Assembly: GCA_963737065.1 (NCBI GenBank)
Contig: CAVTRC010000001.1
Span: forward strand, 1,504,001-1,568,000
Direction of reading: 5' to 3'
DNA from: Candidatus Eremiobacteria bacterium
Lineage (GTDB): Bacteria > Vulcanimicrobiota > Vulcanimicrobiia > Vulcanimicrobiales > Vulcanimicrobiaceae
Length of the DNA stretch: 64,000 nucleotides
The notes beneath the pieces are model-generated. The model was not told the origin of the DNA, ran no database searches, and was given only the letters and a program-made list of their open reading frames with translations. The position numbers and the translations under genes were made by a program. This document shows positions 2,794 through 59,515 of this stretch, piece by piece. Numbering within the stretch: position 1 is the first letter of the stretch; the number at the start of each line of letters is the position of its first letter.

Positions 2794-3918
2794 GTGCAAC
2801 TAACTCGCGTTCGACTGAGCAACTTTCGTAACTACGTTGAGCTGGATCTCGATCCGGCGCCGGGATTGAACGTATTCGTTGGTCAGAATGCGCAGGGCAA
2901 GAGTAATCTGCTCGAAGCGATTGCCATGCTCGGCACGGGAAAGTCGTTTAGGACTTCGCGTGACGTCGATCTTGTTCGCGAGGGATTGGAGGTTGCGGTT
3001 GTCGCGGGCGATGCGAAGATTCGGGCGGGTATCGTTCACCTCGCGTGCAACATCGCAATGGCGGGACGGGCAATGCGCAAGCAATATACGATCAACGGCC
3101 AAGGCGTACGGTACGCGCGATTCCTCGGCAGTATCCGCGTCGTCACATTCGTTCCGGCCCATTTGCAACTCGTCGGAGGCCCGCCATCACTACGCCGCGC
3201 GCTGATCAACATCGCCTTGGCGCAAGAAGATCGTCAGTATTACCACGAGCTTTCGCGATACCAGAAAGCGGTGCAGCAAAAATCAGCGATGCTGCGCGGC
3301 AATGTCGGTTTCGACCCCGAGTTGCTCGCGATCTACGACAATACGCTCGTCGAAGCGGGCACGTATTTGATGCTCACGCGCAATCACTTCATCACGCAAC
3401 TAGCACGCGAATCGGAGCGCACCCATGCCGAGTGGACGCACGGCGCCGAAACGCTACGCGTCAGTTACGCGCCGAACGTGCCGTTCGAAGCGCCGACCGC
3501 GGATACGGTCGCCGGTGCGCTCGATGCGCGGCTCAAGGCCGTCGCGGAACAAGAGCGAATGCGGAAGATGGCGCTTGCGGGACCGCATCGCGATGATCTC
3601 GCGCTGGAACTCGATGGCCGCTCGTTAGCGGCGTATGGATCGCAGGGCCAGCAAAGGACAGCGGTGCTTGCGCTAAAGGTTGCCGAATATAGTGTGATGC
3701 GCGATCGCGCCAATGAAGCGCCGTTATTATTGCTCGACGACGTGCTCTCGGAACTCGACCAAGAGCGCGCGGGCGCATTTCTCGCCGGCGTCGGCGCGCT
3801 TCGGCAAGCGCACGACGACACGGTGCAGGCGTTTGTCACAGCGACGCATCTGCCGGAGAATTTGCCCGAAAGCGCCCGTGTGTATACGATCGAACGCGCA
3901 ACGGTCGCGTTGTGCTAA
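2794..3918 (+). CDS. recF: DNA replication/repair protein RecF
   Basis: NFRNY, GQNAQGKSNLLEAI, GPHRDDL, GSQGQQR, LLLDDVLSELD. Confidence 0.97.
   Translation: MQLTRVRLSNFRNYVELDLDPAPGLNVFVGQNAQGKSNLLEAIAMLGTGKSFRTSRDVDLVREGLEVAVVAGDAKIRAGIVHLACNIAMAGRAMRKQYTINGQGVRYARFLGSIRVVTFVPAHLQLVGGPPSLRRALINIALAQEDRQYYHELSRYQKAVQQKSAMLRGNVGFDPELLAIYDNTLVEAGTYLMLTRNHFITQLARESERTHAEWTHGAETLRVSYAPNVPFEAPTADTVAGALDARLKAVAEQERMRKMALAGPHRDDLALELDGRSLAAYGSQGQQRTAVLALKVAEYSVMRDRANEAPLLLLDDVLSELDQERAGAFLAGVGALRQAHDDTVQAFVTATHLPENLPESARVYTIERATVALC
3799..3820 (-). repeat. Degenerate palindromic repeat copy inside recF (encodes LRQAHDD)
   Basis: CTTCGGCAAGCGCACGACGACA versus CTTCGACAAGCTCAGGATGACA; 4 mismatches, all at codon position 3. 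Confidence 0.65.
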
Positions 3919-4760
3919 AACTTCGCGAAGCACTCGGCGGCTGGACTCCCGGAGAACGCAGCGGCGCGCAAGCGACCGACCCGCTCGTGTTGCTTGGCGC
4001 AGCATGGTCCGAGATCGTCGGCGAGGCGAACGCACGCAAGTCGCATCCGAGTAAAATCGAAGGCGACACGCTCGTGATTAAAACCGCGGGCAGCGGCTGG
4101 AGCCACGCGCTCAGCTGCGAATCGTCGCAAATCGTCGCCGCGATTCGTTCACGAGTGCCGAAGGCGAAGGTCGAAAAGTTGCGTTTCCGCATCGGTGCGA
4201 TCACTCCGCCCGGCAGCCTTTCCGCTTCGAAACGTGTTAAGGGAAAGGCGGTGACACGCGAATCGCGTGCGCCGGCCGCCGATGCTCGTGAGGCATTGGC
4301 GCGGCTGCGCAGCGACGTTGAGGCCTCAGAGCGGGCGAAACGCGCGCGCGCGTGGAAAGAATGCGCAGGCTGCACCGCCTTGATCGTGCCTGAATCCGGC
4401 CCGTTTTGCGTTACCTGCGACATTGTGCGCAATGACGAACGGGAACGTCTCGTATCACGGCTTCTCTTTGAAGCACCGTGGCTCGGGTTTGCCGGAACCT
4501 CGAGCTTGATCGAGGACCTGACCCATGATGAGTACGAGGGCATCCGCCGGCGCCTCTTGACGCGATGGTGGGAAAGGCTCTCGCGCGCGCGTCTGGCCGG
4601 GAAACTTTCACGCGATCGATCGGAACGACTGATCGCGAGTTCCTACGTCTTGTTGAAGAGCGAACTCGCACCAGAACGAATTGATCCCGCGACGGTGCGC
4701 AATATGCTCGGCGACGAGCTGCACGCTCTCATTTACGGAACGGAACAGTTAGAAAAGTAA
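3912..4760 (+). CDS. DUF721/DciA-family protein with C-terminal CxxC-CxxC extension
   Basis: AWSEIVG..GDTLVIKT..WSHAL..LRFRIG pattern; canonical position between recF and gyrB; CAGC..CVTC. Confidence 0.8.
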   Translation: MLKLREALGGWTPGERSGAQATDPLVLLGAAWSEIVGEANARKSHPSKIEGDTLVIKTAGSGWSHALSCESSQIVAAIRSRVPKAKVEKLRFRIGAITPPGSLSASKRVKGKAVTRESRAPAADAREALARLRSDVEASERAKRARAWKECAGCTALIVPESGPFCVTCDIVRNDERERLVSRLLFEAPWLGFAGTSSLIEDLTHDEYEGIRRRLLTRWWERLSRARLAGKLSRDRSERLIASSYVLLKSELAPERIDPATVRNMLGDELHALIYGTEQLEK

Positions 4761-6658
4761 TGTCAAGCGGTTATAGCGGCGAACACATCGAGGTCCTCAA
4801 GGGGCTCGAGGCCGTTCGCAAACGCCCCGGCATGTACATCGGGAATACGTCGGAGCGCGGTTTGCATCAGCTCGTGTACGAAGCAGTCGACAACGGCGTC
4901 GACGAAGCGCTCGCAGGTTATGCGAAAAACCTGATGGTCACGATCTACAAAGACGGCTCGTGTTCCGTCGAAGACGACGGTCGCGGCATTCCTGTCGACA
5001 TGCATGCGGAAGAGAAGCTGCCGGCTGTTGAGGTCGTCATGACGATTCTGCATGCGGGCGGCAAATTCGGCAAAGGCGGATACAAAGTGTCGGGCGGCTT
5101 GCACGGCGTCGGTATTTCGGTCGTGAACGCGCTCTCGGAGTGGATGATCACGCGCGTCAAGCGCGACGGCAACGTCTACGAGATGAAATTCGAGCGCGGC
5201 ATGACCGTACAGAAGCTGAAGAAAAGCGGCAGGACCGACGAAACGGGCACGTTCCAATGGTGGAAGCCGGATACCGACGTGTTCGAAACGCTCGAGCTGC
5301 ACTGGGACATTCTTCAAAAGCGTTTACGCGAACTGGCATTTTTGAATCGCGGGCTCTCGATCACGTTACGCGACGAACGTCCCGAACAAGTGCGCGAGCG
5401 CACGTACAAGTTCGACGGCGGCATCGTGTCCTTCGTGGAGTATCTCAACGAGAAAAAAGACCCGCTGCATCCGATCATTACGACGCATGCGGAGCGGGAC
5501 GGCGTCGACGTTGAAGTCGCGATGCAGTACACGGATACGTACTCCGAGCAAATTTTCAGCTACGCGAACAACATCAACACGATCGAAGGCGGCATGCATC
5601 TCCAAGGCTTTCGCCAAGCGGTGACGCAAGCGGTCAACAGCTATGCCAAGAAAAAAGGCATGCTCAAAGAATCTGATGGATCGCTTTCCACCGACGACAT
5701 CATGGAAGGCCTCACCGCGGTGGTTTCCGTGAAGTTGCAAGAACCGCAATTCGAGGGGCAAACGAAGACGAAGCTCGGCAATGCCCGCGTGCGCAGTATC
5801 GTGTACGGCCTCGTGAACGAGCGGCTCGATTTTTTCTTCGAAGAGAACCCCAAACAGGCGCGCGTCATCATCGACAAATGCATGCAGGCGCAACGGGCGC
5901 GCGAAGCCGCAAAGAAAGCGCGCGATCTTTCGCGCCGCAAGAACGCGCTCGAAGGGTCGGGTCTCCCGGGCAAACTCGTCGACTGCAAGAACACGAATCC
6001 GTCGGAAAGCGAAATCTTTTTGGTCGAAGGCGATTCAGCCGGCGGTACGGCAAAGGGCGGACGCGATCCGAACACGCAAGCGATTCTGCCGCTGCGCGGC
6101 AAGATTCTCAACGTCGAAAAGGCGCGCCTCGACAAAGTGCTTTCCAACGAAGAGATTCGCACGATGATCACGGCGTTCGGCACCGGCTTCGGCGATGAAT
6201 TCGACCTTGCCAAGCTGCGCTACCACAAGATCATCATCATGACCGACGCGGACGTCGACGGATCGCACATCCGCACGCTGCTGCTGACGTTCTTCTACCG
6301 GCAAATGAAGCCGCTCGTCGAAGGAGGCCACGTCTTCATCGCACAGCCGCCGCTCTACGGCGTGAAGCGCGGCAAGAAGCAGTGGTGGGCGTTCAGCGAC
6401 GGCGATCTCAAATCGATCGTCGGCGACGGCGATCTCAAAGACTTCCAAGTTCAACAGTACAAGGGTTTGGGCGAAATGGACGCCGAGCAGCTTGCCGAGA
6501 CGACGATGGAAATGGGACACCGGCGGCTGAAACAGATCACCGTTGAAGACGCGGTCGAAGCCGAACGAATCTTCACCGACCTGATGGGCGACAAAGTGGA
6601 ACCCCGCAAACAATACATCTTCGACTACGCGAAGTCGGTGAAAAACCTCGACCTCTAG
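4760..6658 (+). CDS. gyrB: DNA gyrase subunit B (short type)
   Basis: [52 protein letters not shown]; follows recF. Confidence 0.96.
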
Positions 6659-6852
6659 TCGTCTCTATCGCGCGAGCGCACCGGTCGAAAACCGGTCACA
6701 TAGCCGCTTGGCTCAGCGACGTGCAATCGGGCGAGCCGACGTGTCGGTGGAGGCCTCGGCACACACGATGAGCAGGGGTGGCCGGCTTCGCCACGCATAG
6801 CGTATTACGTTTGGCGTGTAAGGCGCGTCCCTATACGCTGAGCCGGCGCGGT

Positions 6853-7049
6853 TTGATCGTTCGCCGATTGGCGCGCGCGAAGGTGTTCGCATGCGTTCTG
6901 CGCGCGTTTGCTGCGTTGTAATGCCGCGACATCGCTAATGATCTTTCGGCCGTTCGTGCACGGCGGTTCCACAAACCTTCACCGTTCGCGAGCGACGCAT
7001 ACTCGTCGGGATACGCCGACTTACAATCACGAACCACTATAACGGCTGA
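6853..7049 (+). pseudogene. higB: Decayed HigB-family toxin remnant
   Basis: Fragments in shifting frames: (M)I/SFAD, ARLLRCNAATSL, NDLSAVRARRFHK..DAYS, LTITNHYNG*; stop TGA overlaps higA ATG (TGATG at 7047-7051). Confidence 0.55.
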
Positions 7050-7366
7050 TGCGAGAAACAAGCATGAAAGTATCACGCGTTCACCCTGGTGAAGTTCTTC
7101 GAACGAATTTTCTCGAGCCACTCAACCTGAGCCAAAACCAGCTCGCGCTTGCGCTGCACGTCCCGGCAACGAGGATAAACGAAATTATCAACGGTAAGCG
7201 CAGCATCAGCGCGGAGACGGCGCTTCGGCTCGGACGCTATTTCGGGACGACGCCGGAGTTCTGGCTGAACCTTCAGGCCCGCTACAATCTCGAGGTGGCC
7301 GAAGATGCAATGGCCGAAGCTATTACCCGCGACGTTCGGCCACGTGAAAAAGCTGGAAACGCCTAA
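7049..7366 (+). CDS. higA: HigA-family antitoxin (HTH XRE)
   Basis: VHPGEVL..FLEPL..RINEIINGKRSISAETALRLGRYFGTTPEFWLNLQ. Confidence 0.95.
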   Translation: MRETSMKVSRVHPGEVLRTNFLEPLNLSQNQLALALHVPATRINEIINGKRSISAETALRLGRYFGTTPEFWLNLQARYNLEVAEDAMAEAITRDVRPREKAGNA

Positions 7367-7390
7367 GTTTCGTATCGCGTTATTGCAATA

Positions 7391-20741: not shown

Positions 20742-20765
20742 TGTCATCCTGAGCCCGCCGAAGGA
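20742..20765 (+). repeat. Palindromic repeat copy directly upstream of lpxB
   Basis: TGTCATCCTGAGCCCGCCGAAGGA; terminal GAAGGA lies 4 nt before the lpxB ATG. Confidence 0.85.
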
Positions 20766-21894: not shown

Positions 21895-22682
21895 TCCGGT
21901 TCTATCACACCTCGGATCTGCACGATCATCGCGGCTTTGTGCCGCGCTTGCGCGCATTGCGTGACGAGCGCCCGGGCTTCTACTTCGATTGCGGCGATTC
22001 GCTGCGCGGCAGTCAAACCGTCTATCACCGAAACGAACCGGTCATCGGTGAACTCGATGCCGCGGGCGTCGATGCGCAAGCGATCGGCAATCGCGAGTTT
22101 CACTATCTCTATTCGTTGCTCAGCGCGCGCGCCTCGAAGATGCAGCACCCACTGGTGTGCACGAACCTGCTCGACACGAAGAACCGCGCGCTGCCGTTTA
22201 CCCCTTCTGTCATCCTGAGCTTGTCGAAGGATCGGCTCAATTCAATCGCGCGTAACAATCCTTCGACTGCACTTCGTTCCGCTCAGGATGACACGCGGAT
22301 CCACATCCTTGGGCTACTGATCATGCAGTATCCGGTTGGAAGTCCATACGAGCGAGTCTTCGGGTGGCGATTTCTCGATCCGTGGGATGCGGTCGCGCCG
22401 TACGCGGCGCAGGTTCCGGACGGCGATATGCTGCTCGTCCTCTCGCATGTGGGATTATCACTCGACCGCAAACTCGCAGAGCGTGTGCCGCGCATCGACC
22501 TGATTCTCGGCGGCCACAGCCACGACACATTGTTCGCGCCCGAAGAAGTCAACGGCGTTCCGATCGTGCACGCGGGCCCGTACGGTCAGTACGTTTCTCG
22601 CACGGAACTCGAATATTCGAACCCAAAACGCCGCTTCGCACTTCGCTCGTGCGAGTTGCTGCCGCTGCTCGGGCCTCCATAG
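21891..22682 (+). CDS. Calcineurin-like metallophosphoesterase (5'-nucleotidase N-domain type); candidate UDP-2,3-diacylglucosamine hydrolase
   Basis: TSDLH, DCGDS, IGNRE, LSHVG, GGHSH motifs; no signal peptide; start overlaps lpxB stop. Confidence 0.85.
   Translation: MIRFYHTSDLHDHRGFVPRLRALRDERPGFYFDCGDSLRGSQTVYHRNEPVIGELDAAGVDAQAIGNREFHYLYSLLSARASKMQHPLVCTNLLDTKNRALPFTPSVILSLSKDRLNSIARNNPSTALRSAQDDTRIHILGLLIMQYPVGSPYERVFGWRFLDPWDAVAPYAAQVPDGDMLLVLSHVGLSLDRKLAERVPRIDLILGGHSHDTLFAPEEVNGVPIVHAGPYGQYVSRTELEYSNPKRRFALRSCELLPLLGPP
22208..22293. repeat. Inverted pair of palindromic repeats in-frame in the metallophosphoesterase
   Basis: TGTCATCCTGAGCTTGTCGAAGGA ... TCCTTCGACTGCACTTCGTTCCGCTCAGGATGACA, read as VILSLSKD..PSTALRSAQDD. 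Confidence 0.9.
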
Positions 22683-44560: not shown

Positions 44561-44581
44561 TTTATCCTGAGCGTCGAAGGG
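44561..44581 (+). repeat. Shortened palindromic repeat copy downstream of recQ
   Basis: TTTATCCTGAGCGTCGAAGGG abutting the stop at 44582. Confidence 0.6.
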
Positions 44582-46269
44582 TTAGGCGATCTTCGCAGTC
44601 TTGGCGGGAGTTACTGCCGATGCGAGCAGCGTCTTGTATCCGACGTTCGGGAAGAGCACGGTCACCAAATCTTTTTCCGCGCGCTCGATCGTGCCGGTGC
44701 CGAACTTCGGATGCGTCACCACATCGGAGATGCGGAAACCGCTCGTCGAGAAAGCCGCCTTCGACGGGCTCGGACGATGTTTCATCGGTCGTCGCGGCCG
44801 TCGTTCCGCACGCGCCGCGCGTCGCGCGCAGGCAGTTATCGCACGTGCCGCAGTTCGACGTGTCGTAATCCTCGCCGAAGTAGTTGAGGATGAAGCGCCG
44901 GCGGCACGAGGCGTTCTCCGCATACTGCAGCATCATCGCGAGCTTCGATTGGTCGTACGACTTCTTCGTCTCGTAATTCGCGAGGCTCAACACCAGCTCG
45001 CGATTCTTGCGCACCGCTTCGGTCAGCTTGTACGCCGATTTGCCGGCCGTTTCGATGTAGCCGGATTTCTTGAGCAGCGCGAGGATGACTTTGAGCTTGG
45101 TGAGCGGCAGCTGCAGAATCTTGCGCAGATCGGTCATCGAGACGCCGTCTTCTTGATCGCCGAAGACTTCGATCGTGCCGAAGACGCGCTGCACTTCTTC
45201 GATGTCGGGATACTTGCCGGTGAGGAAGTAATTCTGCACGCGCGTATCGCTCATGCGATAGATGAGGATGCAGCGCGACTTCTCGCCGTCGCGTCCCGCG
45301 CGTCCGGCTTCTTGCGTGTAGGCTTCGAGCGAGCCCGGCAGATCGTAGTGCACGACGAAGCGGATGTTCGACTTGTCGATGCCGAGGCCAAAGGCGTTGG
45401 TCGCGACGACCGCGCGAATCGTCTCGTTCATGAAGCACTCGTGCACGAGCGTGCGATCTTCTTTATGCAGTTTCGAGTGGTACACCGCCGCCGGAATGTT
45501 CATCGTGTCGGTCAGGTACTTCTGCACTTCGAGCGCGTTCTTGATCGTCGCGGTGTAGATGATGCCGGTGCCTTCGAGCGTGTCGCGTCCGGTGAAGAGC
45601 TGCTGCAGAATCTTGAACTTGTCGGCTTCTTTGTCGGCCTTGCGCGCTTCGTACTGCAGGTTCGGCCGATCGAACCCTTTGACGATCGGCTTGACGTGCT
45701 CGATGCCGAGCTGATGCAGAATGTCTTCGCGCACGGCCGGCGTCGCGGTCGCGGTGAGCGCGAGCACCGTCGGATGCTGCAGCCGTTTGATCACCGCGCC
45801 GAGCGCGAGATAGGCGGGGCGGAAATCGTGTCCCCACTGCGAGATACAGTGCGCTTCATCGACGACGAAGAGCGGCACGTTGATCGATTGCAGCAGCTCG
45901 AGAAAGCTTTGATCTTCGAGCTTTTCCGGCGTCGTGTACGCGATCCTGAATCGTGCCTTGGCCGATACGCTCGCGCGCGACGATTTCTTGTTCTTCGGAG
46001 AGCGTGGAGTTGAGCGCGACGACGTCGGTGATGCCGCGTTCGCGCAGCATGTCGAGCTGATCTTTCATTAACGCGATCAGCGGCGAAACGACGACGGTGG
46101 TGCCTTCGAGCAAGAGCGCCGGCAGCTGATACGTCAGGCTTTTGCCCGCGCCGGTCGCGAGAATCGCGAGCGTATCGTGCCCCGCCAATATGCGGGAGAT
46201 CACTTCTTCTTGGCCCGGATAGAATTGCTCGAATCCGAACTTGTCCTGAAGGGCAGAACGCAAATCCAC
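44582..46269 (-). CDS. recQ: RecQ-family helicase with C-terminal Tudor-like domain (frameshifted)
   Basis: ATGAGKS, VDEAHCISQWGHDFRPAY, QEAGRAGRDG, CRR..CGTCDNC zinc site. Confidence 0.93.
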
Positions 46270-46392
46270 GACGAGTTTCTATAGCCTCCCCACCGATGAG
46301 CATAACCCATCGGTGGCGCGAGAAGCATTACTTATGCAATATGATTACCCCCGGGCAAGCGGAGCCAAACTGCTTGCCTCGAAGTCCCCCGG

Positions 46393-48091
46393 GTGTCCCT
46401 CTATCGAACCTGGCGCCCCAAGTCGTTCGCCGATTTGGTCGGCCAAGACGCCGTTGTCCGCACCTTAACGCACGCAATCGAAAGCGGAAAACTCGCCCAC
46501 GCCTACTTGTTTTCCGGACCGCGCGGTTCCGGGCAAAACATCCGCCGCCAAAATTCTGGCACGGTGCATCGACTGCGTCAACGGGCCAACGGCCCACCCC
46601 GATAATACGTGCGAAAATTGTGTTGCTATGCTCAACGGCACGGCCTTGGACGTGTTGGAGATCGACGCAGCCAGCAATCGCGGCATCGATGAAATTCGCG
46701 CGTTGCGCGATGCGGTGAAGTTTGCGCCGAGCGCGATGCGCATGAAAGTGTACATCATCGATGAAGCGCACATGCTCACCAAAGAAGGCGCCAACGCGTT
46801 TCTGAAAACGCTCGAAGAGCCGCCGCCGCACGCCGTCTTCATTTTGGCGACGACGGAACCCGAAAAGTTGCCGGTCACCATCCTCTCGCGTTGCCAGCGC
46901 TATGCATTCCGCCGCATTTCGATTCCCGTGATGATCGAGCGGATGCGCGAGATCGCAACGTACGAAGGGATCAAAATCGACGACGACGCGCTCGCAACAA
47001 TTGCCTATCGCGCCGACGGCGGATTGCGCGACGCGCTCACGATGCTCGAACAAGCCGCGGCGTTCGCCGAAGGCAAGGTAACGGCCGCGACGATCGACTT
47101 GGCATTCGGCGCAACGGGCCGCGGCTACGCAAACGAGTTGATCGACGCGGTGTTGGCGCGCGACGCGTCGTCGATGCTGCGCATCATCGAAGAAGCGAGC
47201 GACGCCGGCACCGATATGCAGGTGCTGATCCGCTCGTTGATCGCGATGTTCCGCAATTTGCTTGTTGCGCGGGTCGATGCGGAGTTGCTGGCGCGCGATT
47301 TGGCGCCGGAAGATGCGCAGCGCGCGACGGAACGCGCGCAAGGTGTCGCGCAGGCGACGATCGTGCGCGCGTTGCGCGTGTTGAGCGACGCCGCTTCACT
47401 GGCGCGCACGGGTGGAAATCCGCGGCTCGAGTTGGAGACGGCGCTGCTGCGGTTTGTGTTGTCGAGCGAAGATCCGACACTGGAGGCGCTTTCGGCGCGC
47501 GTCGCCGCGATCGAAGAAAACGGTGTCACCGCTGCACGCGGCGCTTCGTCTGAAAGCGCCGCCATGAGCGCAGCTCCGCCAGGGGCGGAGTCGACGACCA
47601 CCCACATCACGCGCACGCAAACCCGAACCCGTCCCCCATCCGCACACCGCAACCGCCACCCGAGATCCCGGATCCCGAACCGCGAACCGAAGCCGGCACC
47701 GCAAGCTGCACGCGCGAAGCCGAGCAACGGCCCCGTGACCGTGCAAAAAGTCCGCGCAGCCTGGACGAACATCCGCGGCAAAGCCGAACACGAACGCGCG
47801 TCGTTGCGCGCGCCACTCTCCGGCGCAATGGTCGACTCAATCGACAGCGACGGCAACCTCCTGCTCAAGCTGCGAAGCAAACTCGACCTCGACATCATGA
47901 AGGGCCACGTGGCGACGCTGGAATCCGCGATCGCCGACGTCCTCGGCTCACCGATCAAGGTTCGGCTCGAATCCGGCGGCGGTGCAGCGCCGAGCGCACC
48001 GGTTGAAGAAGAGAAGCCGCAATTCGAAGAGCCGGCCGAAGACGCCGACGTGCTCTTCAACTACGCTAACGAAAGAATCCGCGAACGATGA
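46393..48091 (+). CDS. dnaX: DNA polymerase III gamma/tau (frameshift near 46535)
   Basis: [50 protein letters not shown]. Confidence 0.95.
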
Positions 48092-48439: not shown

Positions 48440-48480
48440 TGTCATCCTGAGCGAAGCGCCGAAGGCGCGTAGTCGAAGGA
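48440..48480 (+). repeat. Long-form palindromic repeat copy directly upstream of recR
   Basis: TGTCATCCTGAGC-GAAGCGCCGAAGGCGCGTA-GTCGAAGGA; GAAGGA lies 4 nt before ATG. Confidence 0.88.
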
Positions 48481-48484
48481 CCGT

Positions 48485-49096
48485 ATGCCATCAACTGGAT
48501 CAATTGCCGGGCCTGTTCAAGCCCTTATCAACGAATTCTCGAAACTCCCAACCGTCGGCCCTAAAACCGCTGCACGGTTGGTGTTTTATTTGCTGAATCG
48601 TCCGCGTCACGAAGCGCAATCGCTCGCTGAAGCGATCCTTGCAGTCAAAGACAAGGTTCGCTTCTGTTCGATTTGTTTTTCGCTGACGGAGCACGATCCG
48701 TGCGATATCTGCAGCGACGAACATCGCGATGCAACGACGATTTGCGTCGTTGCGGAGGCGAAGGACATCTACGCGATCGAACGCACTGGCGTGTTCAAGG
48801 GCCGCTATCACGTTCTCGGTGGGCTGATTTCGCCGATGGACGGCATCGGCGCTGCGCAGCTGCGCGTTAAAGAGCTTGATTGAGCGAATCGGCGCGAGAA
48901 CGCCGTCTCGAAATCATCATCGCAACAAATCCAAACGCTGAAGGTGAGGCGACGGCGCTTTACTTGTCGCGATTGCTTCAGCCGCTCGACGTTAGCAGTG
49001 AGCCGCTTAGCCTACGGATTGCCAATTGGCGGCGATCTGGATTATGCGGACGAAGTCACGTTAGCAAAAGCGCTTGAAGGGCGTCGAGCGATTTGA
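48485..49096 (+). CDS. recR: Recombination mediator RecR (frameshifts near 48880 and 49000)
   Basis: [13 protein letters not shown]4 finger, [34 protein letters not shown]. Confidence 0.95.
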
Positions 49097-49099
49097 CCG

Positions 49100-50141: not shown

Positions 50142-50501
50142 CTACAGCTCATTGTATTTCTTCGCAGAGCCTCGAACGCGCGCGGTTGGATATTTTGTTC
50201 TGTTTTTTTCGAGCTTTTTTAGCAGGGACGTTCCGAGATCAATCTGCCAGTCATGGCTCATCAGGAGCAGCCAGTAGAAGATGTCGGCCATCTCATCGGA
50301 CAGGCCTTCGCGGTTAGCATTGAGGTAGTGTTCGTCTGTCTGATCAACCCACTGAAAGAGTTCCAGCAACTCCGAGGCTTCGAGCGAAAGGGAGATTGCT
50401 ACATCTTTCGCATTATGAAATTGTTTCCAGTCTCGCTCGTCGCGGAAGGCAATGACCGCCTCCGTTAGTGATGCGAGAGTGGGCGTTTGCGTGTCGCTCA
50501 T
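50142..50501 (-). CDS. MazG-like nucleotide pyrophosphohydrolase
   Basis: FRDERDWKQFHNAKD..EASELLELFQW..DEMAD..KYP. Confidence 0.93.
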   Translation of the reverse strand: MSDTQTPTLASLTEAVIAFRDERDWKQFHNAKDVAISLSLEASELLELFQWVDQTDEHYLNANREGLSDEMADIFYWLLLMSHDWQIDLGTSLLKKLEKNRTKYPTARVRGSAKKYNEL

Positions 50502-50522
50502 GAACGTGAGGTACGAGGCCAG

Positions 50523-52409
50523 GTGCAGCTTTACTGCGGACTAACGCCAGACTTCATACAAATCGAGGCGCAACGTCAAATTGTACGGCGCTTAGGGGTC
50601 AGCTTTTTCGAGTACTATCGCTATGAGCCGTCAGAATCCGAGAAGCGCTCTTGGCACAACTCGCTTCATGCGTTGAGCGCGCAGCTTAAGCGATCAAACT
50701 TCCTCAACCACGGGATTATCGTCGAGATGCAGCTTCCGCTCACCTCGCGCCGGATTGACTGCATGCTGACCGGGCACGATAGAGATGGCGCTCAACAAGC
50801 AGTACTCATCGAGCTCAAGCAGTGGACTGACGCAGCGCCAGCGGAGGAAGACCTGTGCGTGGAGGTACTTTATGGCGCAGGGGTTCGCACACAGCCTCAT
50901 CCGTCGGTCCAAGCCCGCGATTACGCTGAATATTTACGGCAGTACCGGTCGGCATTCTATGAAGACCCGACAGTTGCGCTCAGTCCGTGCGCATGGCTTC
51001 ACAACTTTCAGCATGACCCAGACTCGACTCTATTGGATCACACGAAGTTTGGTGCGGTCCTCGACGACGTCCCGCTTTTCGCAGCTAATGACAGCGACGC
51101 GTTCGGATCGTTCCTAGAGGATAGAATCGGACCTGGAAAAGGCGAGCCCGTGCTCAATCGTATCGTCAACAGCCGCTATGCACCTAGTAAGAAACTGATG
51201 GAACATACCGCGGCGGTCATCCAAGGGCGACGTGAGTACACGTTGTTAGACGAGCAGCTCGTTGCGTACGAGAAGATTATGCTCGCTTCACGAAAAGCGA
51301 CGAGGAGCAAAGCGCCGCGCACCGTCATCATCGTAGAGGGTGGCCCCGGAACCGGAAAATCTGTTATCGCCCTCAATGTGATGGCCGACTTGCTGAAAGA
51401 TGGAAAGAACGTTCAGCACGCTACTGGGTCGAAAGCGTTCACAGAAAATCTTCGCAACACGCTTGGCTCGAGAGCCGCGTATCAGTTTCGCTATTTCAAC
51501 AGCTTCGTAGATGCAGAGCAAGCAGAAATCGACGTGCTGATCTGCGACGAAGCGCACCGCGTTCGTGAGTCGAGCAACAATCGCTTCACGGCTAAGGGGC
51601 GGCGCTCCACGATGCCTCAAATCGAAGAGCTCATCTCTGCCTCAAGGGTTACTGCATTCTTCATCGACAACCAGCAGGTCGTTCGCCCCGGTGAAATCGG
51701 TTCAACAGCCGTCATCAGAGAAGCTGCTCAAACGCTCGGTGCGAGAGTCGTTGAGGAACGACTGGAAGCGCAGTTCCGTTGCGCGGGGTCCGACGAGTAC
51801 ATCGACTGGGTCGATGGGCTGCTTGGCATCCGCGAGACGGACGTCGAGCGATATGATGTGTCGAATAACTTTCAGTTTCGGATGTTCGACTCGCCAGAAT
51901 CGCTTGACGACGAAATCCGGCGGCGCGCGGCCGACGGACAATCGGCGCGTCTAACTGCTGGATTCTGCTGGCCTTGGTCTAACCCTGAAGGCGGAAGGCT
52001 TGTCGAGGACGTCGCTATCGGGTCGTTCGCGAAGCCTTGGAACGCAAAACCGGATGCCGGGCGGCTTCCGATTGGCGTGCCCAAGTCGAACTTCTGGGCC
52101 ACGGATGCAAACGGCATAAATCAAGTTGGTTGTGTCTACACCGCGCAAGGCTTTGAGTTTGATTATGTCGGGGTGATTTGGGGTCGCGACCTGATTGTTC
52201 GCAATGGTGAATGGGTTGCCGACCGACGTGCGTCTTTTGACATGGCGGTGAGACGCGCGAAAGATGAGCACTTCAAGGTGCTTGTAAAAAATACATACCG
52301 CGTCCTTCTCACTCGTGGTTTGAAGGGTTGTTTCGTCTTCTTTCAAGACGCAGAGACGCGTTCGTTTTTCGAGAGTCATCTTGAAGCATACCAAAGCAGA
52401 GGTCATTGA
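50523..52409 (+). CDS. DUF2075 (Schlafen group 3-like) helicase with N-terminal PD-(D/E)xK domain
   Basis: RIDCML..LIELKQW; GGPGTGKS; DEAH; VGCVYTAQGFEFDYVGV; YRVLLTRG; GTG at 50523 preferred as start. Confidence 0.9.
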   Translation: MQLYCGLTPDFIQIEAQRQIVRRLGVSFFEYYRYEPSESEKRSWHNSLHALSAQLKRSNFLNHGIIVEMQLPLTSRRIDCMLTGHDRDGAQQAVLIELKQWTDAAPAEEDLCVEVLYGAGVRTQPHPSVQARDYAEYLRQYRSAFYEDPTVALSPCAWLHNFQHDPDSTLLDHTKFGAVLDDVPLFAANDSDAFGSFLEDRIGPGKGEPVLNRIVNSRYAPSKKLMEHTAAVIQGRREYTLLDEQLVAYEKIMLASRKATRSKAPRTVIIVEGGPGTGKSVIALNVMADLLKDGKNVQHATGSKAFTENLRNTLGSRAAYQFRYFNSFVDAEQAEIDVLICDEAHRVRESSNNRFTAKGRRSTMPQIEELISASRVTAFFIDNQQVVRPGEIGSTAVIREAAQTLGARVVEERLEAQFRCAGSDEYIDWVDGLLGIRETDVERYDVSNNFQFRMFDSPESLDDEIRRRAADGQSARLTAGFCWPWSNPEGGRLVEDVAIGSFAKPWNAKPDAGRLPIGVPKSNFWATDANGINQVGCVYTAQGFEFDYVGVIWGRDLIVRNGEWVADRRASFDMAVRRAKDEHFKVLVKNTYRVLLTRGLKGCFVFFQDAETRSFFESHLEAYQSRGH

Positions 52410-52497: not shown

Positions 52498-54113
52498 ATG
52501 TCTACTCAATCGCTTACCGCCCCTCGAGGGCTTCCAGAGATCGGCCGGTCGCTCGGCAGAGCCTTTAGCAACATTCCGCGATGGCTGCTCATCGCGCTCG
52601 CGGCGCTCGTGATCGTGGGCCTGATCGCAGGCACGGTCATTTCGCGCACGCAGAGCGCGACGCAGGTCGTCACCGCTCCGGTCGTCCGTCAGACGCTGAC
52701 GCAGTCCGTAACCGCGTCCGGTACGGTGAACGCGCAAAACAGCGTTACCGTCGGCAGCCAAGTTTCGGGAACGATCTCGCAGCTCTACGCCGACTACAAC
52801 TCAAAGGTCAAACAAGGCCAAGTCCTCGCGCGCATCGATCCGAGCAACTTCCAAGCGCAGCTCGCGAAAGATGAAGCCGCTCTCGCGCAAGCGCAGGCGC
52901 AAGCCGGCGAAGCCGCCGCAAACGCCAACGGCGCGGGCGCGGGCGTAACCGTCGCGCAGGCAAACGCGAACGCGCAAGAAGCCGCCGCAAACGCCGCCAA
53001 GACGAACATCGCCAAGGCGCAATCAGCACTGACGCTCGCGCAGCAACAGCTCGCGCGCGATCAACAGTTGCTCGCGCAAGGCTACATCGCGCAAGCAACG
53101 GTGCAGAGCGGATCAGTCGACGGTCGCGCAAGACGAATCGGCCGTAGCCCAGGCACAAGCCGCCTACGCGCAAGCGCAAGCGCAAGCGCAGGCGAGCAAC
53201 GCAACGATCGGACAAAACGGTTCGACCGCGCAAGCGCAAGCCGCAAGCGCAGACGCTGCGCAAGCCGCCGTGCAAGCCGCGGAAGCCACCGTGCAAACGG
53301 ATAAACTCAATCTCGAACACACCGTCATCACCTCGCCGGTGAACGGTACGGTCGTCTCGCGCGCCGTGTCGGTCGGTCAGACGGTTGCCGCATCGCTGCA
53401 AGCGCCGACGCTCTTCACGATCGCGCAAGACCTCTCCAAGATGGAAGTCGACATCAACGTCGGCGAGCCGGATATCGGCGGCGTGAAACCGGGCGATACG
53501 GTTGACTTCACGGTGCTCGCGTACCCGAACCAAACGTTCCACGGCACCGTGCAACAGGTTCGCATCAATCCGCAAACCGTGAACAACGTCGTAACGTATG
53601 ATGTCGTCGTCGACGTCAACAACAAGGACAACAAGTTGCTTCCGGGCATGACGGCCAACGCGACGATCAACGTCGCGAGCTCGCCGAACGCCCTCGTGGT
53701 TCCGCTCACCGCACTGCACACGCGTAGCGCCCTTCGACAGGCTCAGGGTGACACGGGGGCGGCTCAAGGTGACACGGCGAGCGCACAACCGCAAGCCGCC
53801 GGCGCATCGCAGTCGCCGTGGGGCGGCACGGCGGGCACGAGCAGCGGCAGCATCGCGACGGGACAAACGGCGTCGCTGATGGTGCAACGCGCGGGCAAAC
53901 TGCAACGCGTGAAGGTCCAAGTCGGACTCGTCACCGCCACGCAGGCGGCGGTAACGCCGACCGACGGCAGCACGCTCAGCGAAGGTGACAACGTCGTCAC
54001 AGCATTCAGCGGAACGCGCAGCGGCAGCGGTAAGAACGGCCAAAACGCGCCAGTCGCGCAGCCCGCTTCAGGGCGGCGGCGCCCCGCGTGGCGCAATGCG
54101 CGGCATGCCGTAA
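52498..54113 (+). CDS. MacA-like efflux periplasmic adaptor (frameshifted)
   Basis: VGSQVSGTI..DYNS.VK.GQ; ITSPVNG; GQTVAASLQAPTLF; LLPGMTAN. Confidence 0.9.
53730..53774 (-). repeat. Palindromic repeat copy plus partial tandem copy, in-frame in the adaptor gene
   Basis: CCCTTCGACAGGCTCAGGGTGACA then GGCTCAAGGTGACA; reads ALRQAQGDTGAAQGDT. Confidence 0.85.
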
Positions 54114-54115
54114 CG

Positions 54116-54137
54116 CTTCGACAGGCTCAGGGTGACA
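54116..54137 (-). repeat. Palindromic repeat copy just after the adaptor gene
   Basis: CTTCGACAGGCTCAGGGTGACA. Confidence 0.85.
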
Positions 54138-54192
54138 CTGAGTACGCCATCAGCAATCGGGCGAAGCGCATGCGCGTGGGTATGCTGCGCGA

Positions 54193-55189
54193 ATGAGCGA
54201 CGAACAACCATCAGACGAGACGAGCATTTGTTGGAACGGTTGGGACGGGAATTGCGGCAGCTGCGTTGACGCAAAACGCGTCCGCGCAAGGCAGCACACA
54301 AGGATGAGCCGGCGCTTCCGAATCCGACCGACCGGTATCAGAAAACGTTTCCGATGCAGCAACAACCGTGGCCCGGTTTGCAATCGAAGATGGATCCGCG
54401 ACCGGATTGCGGCGAGACATCATATCAAGGCACGCGGGCGGCTACGCGGCCGCAAAATGCTTGTCACGGGCGCAGATTCCGGCATCGGGCGCGCCGCAGC
54501 GATCGCATTTGCGAAAGAAGGCGCCGACGTTGCGCTCAATTATCTTCCTCAAGAAGAAGCCGACGCGCGCGAAGTCGTGCAAGTGGTCGCACTGCGCGGC
54601 CGCAAAGCCGTGCCGATTCCGGGCGACATTCGTGAAGAGGGTTCTGCCGCAACTCGTCGATCGCGCCGTGCAGCAGCTCGGCGGACTCGATACCATCGTG
54701 AACGTCGCCGGCAGGCAGAACGCGATCGAAAACATCGAGGATCTCTCAACCGAACATATCGATTGGACGTTCAAAACCAACGTCTATGCGATGGTGTGGA
54801 TCGTGAAGGCCGCGTTGCCGCACTTGCGTCCCGGGTCAGTCATTATCAATACCGCATCCGAGCAGGGCTACAATCCCGACCCCTGGCTCGTCGATTACGC
54901 GATGACGAAAGCCGCGATCGTGAATTTCACGAAGTCGATGGCCAAGCAACTGGCAAAGCGCGGTATTCGTGTCAATGCGGTCGCGCCCGGACCGTTCTGG
55001 ACGGCACTGCAAATTACCGGCGGAACGATGCCCTCGAAGATCCCGACGTTCGGTCAGCAAACGCCGCTCGGTCGCGCCGGGCAACCGGTAGAAATCGCGC
55101 CGGTCTACGTCGCGCTTGCGGCGGGTGATCTATCGTACGGAACGGGCGGCATTTGGGGCGACACCGGCGGCAATCCCGGGCCGGGTTAG
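54193..55189 (+). CDS. YghA-like SDR oxidoreductase with twin-arginine-like leader (frameshifted)
   Basis: [42 protein letters not shown]. Confidence 0.88.
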
Positions 55190-55570
55190 TTCGGAAGGTT
55201 TGCGAAAACTTCGTCGACGTCGAATTGAAGCCACGGCAATTCGATACTGACGAAACGCTCGCCCATCACTAGCGTCGTCGCGCCGACGCGCGTAATTGCG
55301 CGAATCGTTCGCTTCTCCGGAAGCACGTCGAATGCGACGATCGTGCCTTTCGCGAGATACGCTTGCATCTTCCACTCCACGTTCTTAGTTTGTCGCCTGG
55401 CGAACGAATTTCGAACGCTACGTCGGGTGCAAACGGCGGCTCTTCCCGCTGCTTGTGATCCAACGCATTGAGACGCTCGCGCGACACGAAGGCAACGTCC
55501 GGCACGAGCGAGGTCGGCGGGTCGCCCGGTGCGCTCAACCAAAAGCGCCATTCGGTCGCGACATCGCTGC
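55186..55570 (-). pseudogene. Uma2/DUF820 endonuclease, apparently N-truncated and frameshifted
   Basis: LVPDVAFV..APDVAFEIRSPGD; usual N-terminal part not recognisable. Confidence 0.65.
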
Positions 55571-55708
55571 GATCCCGGGCTCGATATAGGGCTTCTCGTC
55601 GATCGATCGCATCGCGGTCCTCGATTCCTCACGACTACCGTATCACTGCCCGCGCTGTGACAGCGCGAGACGGCAAAGGGACTGCCGGGAAACGAGCTGC
55701 GCCGCCGG

Positions 55709-55743
55709 TTGACGCAGCGTACAGACTAGACTAAGCTTAGTCG
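55709..55743 (+). promoter_or_regulatory. Sigma70-type promoter with palindromic operator
   Basis: TTGACG-17 nt-TAAGCT; perfect palindrome GACTAAGCTTAGTC at 55729-55742. Confidence 0.75.
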
Positions 55744-55983
55744 ATGGAAATGGTGAACGTCCACGAGGCGAAAACGCACTTCTCCCGTCTGGTGGACAAG
55801 GCGGCCGCCGGTGAGGAAATCGTCATTGCAAAGGCCGGCAAACCCGTTGCCAAACTTGTGCCGCTCGATAAACCCGAAGGGAAGCGACAGCTCGGCCAGC
55901 TTGCTCATCTTGGAATAACTATACCGGACGACTTTGATGATCCGTTGCCTGATGACATTCTCGACGCATTTGAAGGTCGATGA
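55744..55983 (+). CDS. Phd/YefM-family antitoxin
   Basis: VNVHEAKTHFSRLVD.AAAGEEIVIAKAGKPVAKLVP. Confidence 0.95.
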   Translation: MEMVNVHEAKTHFSRLVDKAAAGEEIVIAKAGKPVAKLVPLDKPEGKRQLGQLAHLGITIPDDFDDPLPDDILDAFEGR

Positions 55984-56366
55984 GGATTCTTCTTGACACG
56001 CATCTGCTGCTGTGGTCGCATATGAACGATCGAAGGCTTTCGCAGACGGTTCGCGAGCTGCTCGAATCTCGAGAAAACGACGTGTACTTCAGCGCCGCAA
56101 GTATTTGGGAAATTGCGATCAAAGCGCAGTTAAAGCGGCTGGAATCTACCGTCGACCCGCAGCAAATCGTACGTGCGGCCCTCGATAGCGATTTTGAAGA
56201 ACTGCCGGTAACCGCCAGCAGCGCAGTTTTAGTCAGCGCACTGCCGATGCATCACCGCGACCCGTTCGACCGCCTTTTGGTAGCTCAGGCGATGTCGGTG
56301 CCGCTTACCCTCATGACGGCAGACCCGCAGCTGCTGCAATATTCCGAACTGGTACGTCTCGTATAA
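55980..56366 (+). CDS. vapC: VapC-family PIN toxin
   Basis: LLDTH, SAASIWEIAIK, HHRDPFDRLLVAQA, TAD. Confidence 0.95.
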   Translation: MRILLDTHLLLWSHMNDRRLSQTVRELLESRENDVYFSAASIWEIAIKAQLKRLESTVDPQQIVRAALDSDFEELPVTASSAVLVSALPMHHRDPFDRLLVAQAMSVPLTLMTADPQLLQYSELVRLV

Positions 56367-56372
56367 AACAAG

Positions 56373-57452
56373 ATGGCGAAAAAGGTCGATAAGCGCGTCT
56401 TCGATGTGAGAGCTGCCGTCAGCGACGATCCCTCAACGTGGCGGCTCGTCGCGGTAAGTTCCGATGCAGTGCTTCCCGAGTTTTACCGCACGATCCAAGG
56501 CGCGTTCGAGTGGGTGTGGCCTACGTTTGCAAAGATGCTCGTTGGCGAAGCGATGTTCTTCGGCGGCAAAGGATCGCGCACGCCGCTGCGGCGCGTCTTC
56601 TCCATCGGCGATCGAGGAATGCTCTCGTTCGCCGATGACGACGGCGATACGATCGTCGTGCGTTTCGAAGTGTTGCGCGTCTACGAAGTTCCGTCTCGCC
56701 GCCATTACCCAAAGGTGTTGGACGGCGCGGGCATGTACCGGCCCAGCTACTCCGAGAAACAGTTTTGGTGCGACACGAGCACGTGGGTCGCCCAAGAGCT
56801 TGCGCGTTACGGATTCAGGGAGCAACGCCCGACTCGAGCGGCCGATTCGAAGCGCCACCTTTCGCGCGATGAATGCGACGAGCTGGAAGCGCTGATGCAA
56901 CGCCGCGATCCGGCGTGCTCCGGACCGATGCATGGTTCGATAACGTGCCTCCACGGTTTCCTCACGTGCGTGATTTCCGGGCCGCTCATTCTGCCGTCAG
57001 AATGGTTTCCCGTCGTGTTCGGTGACGAAAACAACGACGTGCCCTGGGAAACGATGCAGGAAGTCCAGCGCGCGACTTCGCTCGTCATGCAGTTCTACAA
57101 CGGCATTGTGGACGATCTGCGCAGCGACGACTTTCGCATCATCATGGATCCAATTGCCGATGGTCCCGAGGCGTTGGGCCGCGTCGAGAATTGGTGTCGC
57201 GGCTTTCTGGTCGGAACGGCGCTACGCGCCGACGAGTGGCAAAGCGCGATGCAAGATCAGTATCTGGACGCCCGCATGACGGCAATTATTGCGCTCGGCC
57301 GCCCTGATGCGCCGCCGGTTTTCGATCCCGTGAAGCACCCGCGCGAATACCAGGAAGCGCGCGAAGTTCTCCCGCAGTGCGCACTCGACATGTATCGTTG
57401 GTGGAGGCGTGCAACGCCGAAAGGTTCGCCTCCTCCGTTGCGCGCGGTGTGA
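56373..57452 (+). CDS. UPF0149/YecA-like protein with pRiA4b-ORF3-like N-terminus
   Basis: LHGFLT..SGP.ILPSEW; WCRGFL.G; N-part WRLVAV..IQGAFEW..YPKVLDG. Confidence 0.68.
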   Translation: MAKKVDKRVFDVRAAVSDDPSTWRLVAVSSDAVLPEFYRTIQGAFEWVWPTFAKMLVGEAMFFGGKGSRTPLRRVFSIGDRGMLSFADDDGDTIVVRFEVLRVYEVPSRRHYPKVLDGAGMYRPSYSEKQFWCDTSTWVAQELARYGFREQRPTRAADSKRHLSRDECDELEALMQRRDPACSGPMHGSITCLHGFLTCVISGPLILPSEWFPVVFGDENNDVPWETMQEVQRATSLVMQFYNGIVDDLRSDDFRIIMDPIADGPEALGRVENWCRGFLVGTALRADEWQSAMQDQYLDARMTAIIALGRPDAPPVFDPVKHPREYQEAREVLPQCALDMYRWWRRATPKGSPPPLRAV

Positions 57453-57532
57453 TTCTTCTCATTCGGCTTTAACCCGCCGTCGCCGCGCGCTCTCAAGCGC
57501 CGGCGGTACGATTCCACTCGGAGGAATCTAGA

Positions 57533-58265
57533 GTGGAATTCAAGGGTGACGACCCGGTCGTCAAAGTGAAGGACCTGCGCAAGGTCTACACGCTCGGTGA
57601 CGCGCAAGTCATTGCGCTTGCCGGCATCGATCTCGAGATTCATCGCGGCGAATTCGTCGCGGTGATGGGCCCATCGGGCTCGGGCAAGTCGACGTTCATG
57701 CAGATCAGCGGGCTGCTCGACAACCCGACGTCGGGACAGTATTGGTTCGAAGGCCAAGACGTCTCGCATCTCGATCGTGATGCGCGCGCCGACATCCGCA
57801 GCCGCCGGCTCGGCTTCGTCTTCCAAGCGTACAACTTGCTCTCGCGAACGACCGCGCTCGAGAACGTCGAGTTGCCGATGGTTTACGCGGGCGTGCCGGA
57901 AACGGAACGCAAGCGAATCGCGCTTGCCAAGATGGACGATCGTCGGCGTCGACCATCTCGCCGATCATGCGCCGAACCAAATGTCGGGCGGACAACAACA
58001 GCGCGTCGCGATCGCGCGATCGCTCGTGAACAATCCGGGACTCATTCTCGCGGACGAACCGACCGGCGCGCTCGACACGAAAACGTCGGAAGACGTCATG
58101 CGCATCTTCAAAGAATTAAACGAAGAAGAGGGCATCACGATCATGCTGGTCACGCACGAACCGGATATCGCGGCGCACGCGAAGCGGATCGTGACGTTCC
58201 GCGACGGCCGCATCGTGAGCGACCGCCCTTCGACAGCTCAGCGTGACAAGGGGGAAGCAGCATGA
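57533..58265 (+). CDS. MacB/LolD-type ABC ATPase (frameshift near 57937)
   Basis: [41 protein letters not shown]. Confidence 0.93.
58226..58248 (-). repeat. Palindromic repeat copy in the 3' coding tail of the ABC ATPase
   Basis: CCCTTCGACAGCTCAGCGTGACA. Confidence 0.75.
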
Positions 58266-59483
58266 GCGACTTCAAAGGCATTTTCCGCCTCGCGCTTCAA
58301 GCGCTGCATGCGTAACAAGGCGCGTTCGATCATGACGATGCTCGGCATCGTCATCGGCGTCGCGGCCGTCATCGTAACGGTTGCGATCGGATCGGGTGCG
58401 CGTACCTCGGTGCAGAACAGCATCAATTCGCTCGGATCCAATTTGATCGTCGTGCAGCCGGGATCGCTGACGACGAGCGGTTCGCGCGGCGGCAACGGTA
58501 CCGCCTCGACGCTCACGCCGGCTGACGGTTTAGCGCTCGTGCATCTGCCCGGCGTCGCAGCCGTCTCGCCCAGCGTGACCGTTCGCGCGCAAGTCGTCGC
58601 CGACGGCAACAACTGGCAGACGCAAATCCAAGGCGTTGCGCCGACGTATCAAGCGATTCGTTCGTGGCCGATCGCGACCGGTGCGTTTTTCTCTCAATCC
58701 GACGTCGACAGTTCCGCAAAAGTGGCGGTGCTCGGGCAAACGGTGGTCCAGCAACTGTTTCCGAACGGCGCCAATCCGATCGGTCAAACGGTGATCGTTC
58801 GTAACGTTCCGTTCACCGTGGTCGGAACGCTCGCGCCACTCGGACAAAGCGGCATGGGCCAAGACCAAGACGACACCGTGCTGATTCCGTACACGTCCGC
58901 GATGCAGCGCCTGACGGGCCTCACGACGGTGAACTCGCTGATGGTCTCTGCAACCACGCCCGATGAAGTCGATCCGGTGCAAACCGAAGTGACGTCGATG
59001 CTCGAACAGCGCCATCGCATTCCGGCGGGACAACCCGACGACTTCCAAGTGCGTAATCTGCAATCGATCGCAGCCGCCGCATCGTCGACGGGCGCGGTGA
59101 TGGAGTTCTTACTCGCCGGCGTCGCAGCGGTCTCGCTGATCGTCGGCGGCATCGGCATCATGAACATCATGATGGTGTCGGTAACGGAACGCACGCGCGA
59201 AATTGGTTTGCGCATGTCGGTCGGTGCGCGCGCGCGGACGATCCTCAATCAGTTCCTGACGGAATCGGTCGTGCTCTCGTCGATCGGCGGCCTGATCGGC
59301 ATCGCATTCGGATTCGTCGGCACGTTCTTCGTCGCCGCGCTCGCAAAGTGGCCGACGCAAATCCCGGTCGGCTGGGTGATCGCATCCGTCGTCTTCTCCG
59401 GCCTCGTCGGCGTGTTCTTCGGCTACTACCCGGCGAAGAAAGCCGCCGATCTGAATCCTATCGAAGCGTTGCGCTTCGAATAG
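58262..59483 (+). CDS. MacB-type ABC permease (frameshift near 58305)
   Basis: [41 protein letters not shown]. Confidence 0.94.
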
Positions 59484-59491
59484 GTTGGTCG

Positions 59492-59515
59492 CCCTCCGAC
59501 AAGTTCAGGGTGACA
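59492..59515 (-). repeat. Palindromic repeat copy after the permease
   Basis: CCCTCCGACAAGTTCAGGGTGACA. Confidence 0.8.

Follow-up and report, generated by a model that had tools for sequence, protein, structure and literature searches.

The 64,000-nucleotide stretch analyzed here (the window) belongs to a Candidatus Eremiobacteria bacterium (contig CAVTRC010000001.1, positions 1,504,001 to 1,568,000); it begins at dnaA and is origin-proximal. It carries a short dispersed repeat inside genes and beside start and stop codons (Table 1). An original prediction, made from the letters of the window alone, placed the repeat at eleven positions, and all eleven bore a full or partial copy, including those with the centers GCGAAGC and GCGCCGAAGGCGC. 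The repeat unit, a 24-base monomer, consists of TGTCA, a 4-base arm, GAGC, a loop, GTCGA and the complementary arm, and forms an imperfect hairpin. The genome under study (G000) is 3.08 Mb in size and 95% complete; G001 to G006 are congeners. Counts over relatives include the unpublished genomes G025, G027, G034, G035, and G059, and no conclusion hangs on these alone.

Table 1. Copies of the repeat in the 64-kb window, with their context and the state of the site in congeners.
Position	Strand	Copy and context	Insert, congeners or remark
3797..3820	-	Decayed copy, in frame in recF	Net 7-codon insert, ALRQAHDDTV replacing G-Y-E
20742..20765	+	Monomer, intergenic, between lpxA stop and lpxB start	G006 empty; other loop/dimer variants in G001, G002, G003, G005
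22208..22231	+	Intact monomer, arm 1 of 86-bp inverted dimer, in frame in metallophosphoesterase gene	
22259..22293	-	Long-loop monomer, arm 2 of metallophosphoesterase dimer	
44561..44581	+	Variant copy (TTTA head, collapsed loop) adjoining recQ stop 44582-44584	Not in G001, G003
48440..48480	+	Long-loop monomer (GAA/GAA/GTA turns) directly ahead of recR start	G003 empty; other variants in G001, G006
53730..53753	-	Monomer, in frame, in linker of RND/MacA-type periplasmic adaptor	Present in G001, absent from G003, different variant in G006
53761..53774	-	Half copy (head side), tandem to 53730 copy, in frame	Missing from G001, G003
54114..54137	-	Monomer directly 3' of the adaptor's true stop, intergenic	No right-hand anchor in relatives
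58226..58248	-	Monomer (1-base loop deletion) forming C-terminal tail of ABC ATPase	Filled by different variants in 3/3 relatives
59492..59515	-	Monomer 9 bases past stop of MacB-type permease gene	Weight-matrix match

Across the genome, the full search pattern matched 39 times, compared with 0 and 2 matches in two order-5 Markov simulations of contig C1. A weight matrix at 20 bits matched 45 times, compared with 0 in one Markov simulation. The counts were thus far from the chance level that would have spoken against the original prediction, and chance was therefore excluded as the origin of the repeat. About 14 extra copies had the same core with GCCTG/AGCTTG replacing the TGTCA head. The window held eight of the 45 scored copies against 0.94 expected, clustered copies not being independent. 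The orthologous region of G001 was likewise repeat-rich.

The recF copy (position 3799) differed from the intact copy at 22208 at 6 of 24 bases. It was accepted as real because G001 had a perfect copy at the same codon while G002 and G003 had none. Copies had been placed inside four genes by the original prediction. This held for recF, the metallophosphoesterase and the adaptor (53730); the copy assigned to position 54116 was intergenic, and the ABC ATPase copy encoded only the C-terminal tail, read in the frame that carries on a frameshifted gene. The true end of the adaptor was a GMP-stop at 54111-54113, the same as in G003, and the copy at 54114 fell within the listed open reading frame only through a frameshift here. 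A repeat was present at 44561 as claimed, in variant form.

Two matches to PF01541 were found in G000, one in a 698-amino acid frame and one in a 100-amino acid gene at C1:1636823-1637125. The latter lay 69 kb beyond the window and was bracketed by inverted copies of the repeat, which agrees with the GIY-YIG nuclease partner that had been suggested. A perfect copy stood upstream of the gene, the inverted downstream copy provided its stop codon, and arrays of half copies lay outside. These tandem arrays (~22-bp and ~19-bp units; L001:1240-1440 and 1800-1870) were absent from the orthologous site in G001 and G003. PF01541 was the sole domain of the 100-amino acid protein, its structure model had a pLDDT of 89.9, and NCBIfam gave no match. 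Residues Y7, Y17, R27, and E65 were invariant in 19/19 aligned homologues. Y7, Y17, and E65 match the Y6, Y17, and E64 that are required in SsnA (PMC11893778, Fig. 3 legend). A sigma-70 promoter scan at the cassette (hairpin, nuclease gene, hairpin) found none. At many loci (L003:1480-1500; L004-L024) a CGCAG(T/C)AG-like motif, often after TTGCCG, stood 10-25 bases before the nuclease start and is perhaps the promoter of a leaderless transcript.

Among 61 related genomes, the repeat occurred within 400 bp of the nuclease gene at 22/22 close homologues and at 0/8 distant YhbQ-like ones. A wider sample comprised the best 80 of 560 loci from other genomes. Of these 80, 55 had a strict and 66 a relaxed repeat match, and 41 had strict matches on both sides; among 1600 shuffled flanks, 3 were strict and 34 relaxed. 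The 80 loci were spread over Bacteroidota, Nitrospirota, Nitrospinota, Peregrinibacteria, Vulcanimicrobiota, and further groups. At least 15 copies were present in 20/22 genomes with the nuclease compared with 4/39 without it (Fisher p = 3e-10; within the family, 9e-5; kin are not independent in either test). Zero copies were found in 31 of the 39 genomes lacking the nuclease. The loop type adjoining the nuclease gene was also the commoner type genome-wide in 17/20 genomes, counting the long form by exact pattern and the short form allowing two mismatches. One genome assembled as a single contig (G010) had no close nuclease and 19 copies, none of them perfect. No nuclease-profile match to a second nuclease-like gene was found in 239 open reading frames from 18 between-cluster stretches of G011, G012, G021, G030, and G036. 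Locus L310 (G036:C7:302200-304200), near a contig end, was a long perfect inverted duplication and may be an assembly artefact.

Within the genus, the cassette changed its position. Seven congeners together had it at no fewer than five sites; some alleles were empty, and one inversion was seen. The G000 site was empty in G003 and held a single hairpin in G001. At the site common to G002 and G006, G001 carried a second, frameshifted and oppositely oriented copy and G003 had nothing. A further site was common to G003 and G005 and lacked the cassette in G000. The G001 and G004 cassettes were at yet other sites, the left flank of the latter lying off the contig.

Pairing of the stem was measured on 261 distinct monomers, gathered at 95 of the 102 nuclease loci with a pattern in which any arm letters were allowed; about nine such matches were expected by chance. 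The four arm positions formed Watson-Crick pairs in 204, 224, 230, and 235 of the 261 monomers, compared with shuffle means of 78, 88, 119, and 141 (kinship uncorrected). When the arm pairing was slid by one base, 111, 110, and 27 pairs remained. The 4-bp stem covaries across phyla. Arm types included TCCT/AGGA, CCCT/AGGG, TGGT/ACCA, GGTC/GACC, and AATC/GATT. The first A paired in 115/261 monomers against a shuffle value of 114, and the stem comprised 4 bp plus two inner pairs, with loops that were 2-3 nt long or branched. The commonest loops were TT (56), GCA (49), CT (42), GGA (28), and a branched form with three GNA turns (24). The head was TGTC in 221/261 and CGTC in 25/261 monomers, and some variants had TTTA or CCTG heads.

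Interior to the arm, GA stood opposite GA, followed by a G-C pair, a bulge and a C-G pair. The GA/GA and GNA turns may be read as sheared G-A pairs and GNA mini-hairpins. In GCGNAGC hairpins a sheared G-A pair is formed, the RNA form is much less stable, and conventional thermodynamic models fail; GNA mini-hairpins in general are far stabler as DNA than as RNA (PMC13037366, in the portion available). The monomer had originally been called palindromic. It is not a true palindrome and its predicted folding was near that of shuffles; the inverted dimer at 22208-22293 does fold (z = -4.4 in a nearest-neighbor DNA model).

Seven of nine window sites could be anchored in congeners. Six of the seven were copy-free in at least one congener, and the seventh (58226) was filled by different variants in all three compared. 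In a comparison using 880 kb each of G001 and G003, orthologous sites without a scored copy numbered 4/10 (G000 copies in G001), 15/21 (G001 in G000), 13/22 (G001 in G003), and 12/16 (G003 in G000), with larger indels and decayed copies also counted as "no copy". Sites fixed across relatives, the other outcome that would have counted against a mobile element, were therefore not what was found, since congeners have empty alleles. The description of the element as active or recently active holds at the between-species level only (78-97% flank identity). At nine sites shared by G001 and G003, four had the short loop type in G001 and the long type in G003, and none had the opposite.

The 7-codon recF insert was present in G000, G001 (perfect), and G006 (decayed). 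It was absent from 31/33 relatives, namely G002, G003, and 29/29 family genomes (the 29 best-scoring of 57), and because of this absence the insert was taken as a gain. The G000 and G001 inserts differed by five silent changes and one replacement, which suggests that the loop is translated and kept. The metallophosphoesterase segment was 45 amino acids long in G000 and 24-30 in family loci (22 of 29 were readable); the site held a dimer in G001 and G005 and a monomer in G003, and was shorter in G002 and G006.

Among 15 further sites, 12 had orthologues. Five were in-frame inserts, each carried by a single one of three congeners: G000 had them in alaS (+18) and ligA (+21), G001 in a class II tRNA synthetase (+21) and at another ligA position (+18), and G003 in metG (+15). 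At six in-frame junctions, 0-8 target bases were replaced, two junctions shared 4-7 bases with the target, and there was no regular duplication. A general rule of 3' microhomology was rejected; such microhomology was present at recF and the class II tRNA synthetase and not at ligA and metG. A classical miniature inverted-repeat transposable element, with terminal inverted repeats and a fixed target-site duplication, was likewise rejected on junctions that lacked regular duplication.

Outside the window, repeat-coded peptides lay within or between Pfam domains of 10 G000 genes (13 candidates): thiolase, acyl-CoA dehydrogenase, 3-hydroxyacyl-CoA dehydrogenase, ETF-QO, isocitrate/isopropylmalate dehydrogenase, RF3, alaS, ligA, an alanine-racemase-domain protein, and dnaE. 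The empty-allele comparison covers alaS and ligA among these. Gene-level claims were based on Pfam spans because the codon-model call of "intragenic" was crude: it called 217/400 random positions, missed the metallophosphoesterase copies and miscalled one copy before rpsC. In twelve of 13 single in-frame G000 copies the coding strand read as the reverse complement of the repeat (PSTSSGQ, LRQAQ; p ~0.003), a bias that could come from peptide tolerance or from avoidance of a cleavable non-template strand. The head-less repeat form is the form without TGA in the PSTSSG frame. Repeat-coded peptides of the PST(S/G)SG type were likewise seen close to the N-terminal ends of a release factor frame (PCRF/RF-1 domains) and a DXP reductoisomerase frame (C1 166513 and 204343), and a 27-bp copy lay directly upstream of ligA (C1:1862699).

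The closest published counterpart is the pairing of Ssn nucleases (SsnA, CDD cd10448) with NTS/SRM hairpin repeats (Chenal et al., 2025; PMC11893778, cited here from the portions available). In both systems a single-domain GIY-YIG gene of ~100 amino acids lies between oriented hairpins in inverted arrangement, whose (C/T)GTC head is unpaired. In both, a genome carries tens to hundreds of hairpins, the enzyme has the catalytic Tyr/Tyr/Glu, and the phyletic spread is wide. They differ in the hairpin itself: the SRM search string matched 0/45 genome copies and 0/80 and 0/22 nuclease loci, while six Ssn-like reference loci did match it, and the stem of the present repeat is broken by a G-A/G-A mismatch pair and a bulge. 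Whereas 2% of N. meningitidis NTS are intragenic (PMC11893778), at least 14 genes here have in-frame copies. Cassette relocation and empty alleles, observed here, are hypothesized in the available portions of that paper.

Ssn membership is defined there by blastp E < 1e-10 and 75% cover to Neisseria SsnA, and by placement in the Ssn clade (PMC11893778). The nuclease had 36% identity (E = 5.6e-7, proteome size) to the N. gonorrhoeae homologue L190, used as a stand-in for SsnA, and 4/93 hairpin-flanked relatives passed the blastp threshold. A quick tree of 122 rows (two broken and two duplicate rows removed) and a careful tree of 35 hand-picked rows were built. In the careful tree, one clade of the nuclease with nine Ssn-like references was rejected (p-AU = 0.0044). 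The hairpin-flanked proteins formed a grade between repeat-less YhbQ/YazA-like proteins and Ssn, with no clean sister clade. The repeat-less proteins formed their own branch (98/98), and 0/8 of them in relatives had flanking repeats. UPF0213/YhbQ/YazA proteins (PDB 1zg2, 1ywl) were the best sequence and fold matches of the nuclease. These UPF0213 structures presumably correspond to CDD cd10456. As far as the sequences allow, the system appears Ssn/NTS-like in its working and yet falls outside Ssn by that paper's motif and clade tests. Related nucleases had other flanking hairpins (loci L017 of G033, L150, L158): GAGGAGC...GTCTCGAAG, CCTGAGG...CCTCGAAG, and, in Planktothrix, TCATTCTGAG. The Planktothrix protein grouped beside Ssn. 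These variants suggest a continuum of enzyme-hairpin pairs.

CGTC-tagged repetitive extragenic palindromic (REP) sequences, families CGTC-1 to -4, were described by Di Nocera et al. (2013; PMC3733652, cited here from the portions available). The present repeat resembles them in its TGTC head (a listed variant), its placement after stops, its inverted dimers, and the enrichment of in-frame copies in DNA-repair, ligase, and tRNA-synthetase genes, which was published there already. Unlike the repeat studied here, with its 4-bp stem, two inner pairs and 2-3-nt or branched loops, CGTC-tagged REPs have an 8-9-bp stem opening with A-T pairs, a 4-5-nt loop and a CCA-like tail. The peptides of the present repeat were not among the REP-encoded residues listed there (LSLSK and RQAQ had 0 matches in the four readable supplements), and the available portions report no dedicated enzyme. 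The original prediction overlooked published work on intragenic CGTC-tagged REPs (PMC3733652) and on GIY-YIG/hairpin pairing (PMC11893778). Rickettsia palindromic elements (RPE) share in-frame insertion in unrelated housekeeping proteins (PMC10969869, in part); RPE-1 is ~150 bp (PMC10969869), compared with 15-27 bp net for monomers and ~60 bp for the dimer here, in a free-living soil lineage and with a candidate enzyme. No paper on this motif or its GIY-YIG pairing was found in searches of open-access text.

The repeat is real and, over evolutionary time, mobile, and the nuclease is a strong candidate for its enzyme. It has been gained at new sites (in frame in core genes among them), is linked to the nuclease, covaries in its stem, and belongs to a cassette that has relocated. 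It is read here, with a probability of roughly 65%, as a dispersed, lineage-variable element whose single-stranded DNA hairpin is likely the target of the nuclease, which likely drives its spread. By analogy with SsnA, the enzyme would bind one hairpin strand and cut it on the 5' side of the TGTCA head, at a distance of a few bases. The junctions suggest that excised or copied hairpin pieces (~19-45 nt, dimers or the whole cassette) would then be captured at breaks or gaps by host repair. Capture would replace 0-8 target bases, at times with short microhomology and without regular target duplication. The current variant of a genome may overwrite older copies. Selection would retain copies after stop codons and frame-preserving copies in protein loops, where decay would be mainly silent.

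Several points weigh against this reading. GIY-YIG enzymes hydrolyze DNA, and no strand-transfer step is known for them; insertion would therefore require host functions. Fourteen of the 80 other-genome nuclease loci had no relaxed repeat match. G036 (95% complete; 49 copies, many perfect) and G018 (26 copies) had no close nuclease found, and G033 and G034 had the nuclease and one copy of the patterns searched. The four monomers folded at z = -0.96, -1.85, -0.04, and -0.04 against shuffles in the nearest-neighbor DNA model, and the GA letters, and partly the GNA letters, were set by the search pattern itself. Junctions were judged by eye in alignments of ~80-88% identity. The recF carriers G000, G001, and G006 failed to group together in either the recF tree or a nine-gene tree, a pattern that fits repeated gain at the site as well as allele exchange. 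In Neisseria, restricting transforming DNA is the sole demonstrated function of the system and mobility is hypothesized, in the available portions of PMC11893778.

That restriction-type role, the sole in vivo role demonstrated for a relative (Neisseria SsnA; PMC11893778, in part), is the starting point for an alternative that we regard as unlikely. The nuclease might recognize the hairpin solely as a host-serving modulator of single-stranded DNA restriction or recombination, while the repeat spread through host recombination, slippage, and gene conversion with no cut needed. The tandem and half-copy arrays by the nuclease gene do resemble slippage, and repeat-rich genomes without a detected nuclease exist. 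However, a shift of site and orientation within one genus, as seen for the cassette, is not expected of a settled host gene, and most nuclease-less genomes (31/39) were without any copy. Less probable still is that the host keeps the repeat as an RNA element (terminator aid, mRNA stabilizer, or translation control), the classic REP role, with the nuclease link being historical. Many copies adjoin stop or start codons, some dimers enclose terminator-like hairpins, and REPs are usually located behind genes (PMC3733652, in part). Against such a role, sites differ between congeners, the in-gene copies are mostly in reverse complement (12/13 scored single copies), and GNA triloops indicate DNA over RNA structure.

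The original prediction had also pointed to an HUH or RAYT partner, and mobilization in trans by a RAYT/IS200-type HUH transposase, in the manner of REPINs, would account for the REPIN-like inverted dimers and REP-like placement. REPIN/RAYT systems share with the present one a short repeat, inverted dimers, and one repeat-flanked enzyme gene per genome. Yet here the HUH tyrosine transposase was not found, the GTAG tag was absent and the enzyme gene shifts its site within the genus. PF01797 was not found in G000 (95% complete) or in 19 repeat-rich genomes of 37, and the four genomes with PF01797 had zero copies, so that this explanation is very improbable. DUF559 as a partner was not found in G000.

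A broader proposal, which extends the preferred reading of a nuclease-driven element, is put forward only tentatively and is rather doubtful. It holds that a transposase-free form of mobile DNA, in which a GIY-YIG nuclease and host repair move the enzyme's own hairpin-bracketed gene and 19-45-base G-A/GNA mini-hairpins, may occur across many phyla, writing loops (PSTSSGQ, LRQAQDD, VILSLSK) into essential proteins, with Ssn as one derived branch. The way in which CGTC-type REPs are dispersed in the absence of a transposase is described as an open question (PMC3733652, in part), and the mobility of GIY-YIG/hairpin cassettes is so far a hypothesis (PMC11893778, in part). With filled and empty alleles of repeat and cassette, a 100-amino acid protein and a 24-base substrate, this lineage makes both questions directly testable. 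A second single-stranded DNA specificity would broaden the Ssn tool set, and the in-frame copies represent small loops gained and retained by essential enzymes.

Additional observations were made on copy arrangement and on neighboring genes. No clear switch of repeat orientation by replichore was seen at the origin in G021 (64 copies). Inverted dimers enclosed a terminator-like hairpin at G001:C1 ~1500001-1500102 and 1852341-1852460 and at G003:C1 ~2891504. At the first of these sites G000 had a similar hairpin without repeats, as if the arms had been added around an existing terminator. In the window, recQ, recR, the adaptor, the ABC ATPase gene, and probably dnaX were split or truncated by frameshifts (44582-46269, 46296-48091, 48485-48883, 52498-54113, and 57533-58265). 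The window frameshifts were missing from G003 where compared and are perhaps assembly indels; the G001 adaptor had a frameshift of its own. Near recR, a Schlafen group 3 helicase-domain gene (PF09848) was located at window positions 50487-52409 and is a possible defence gene.

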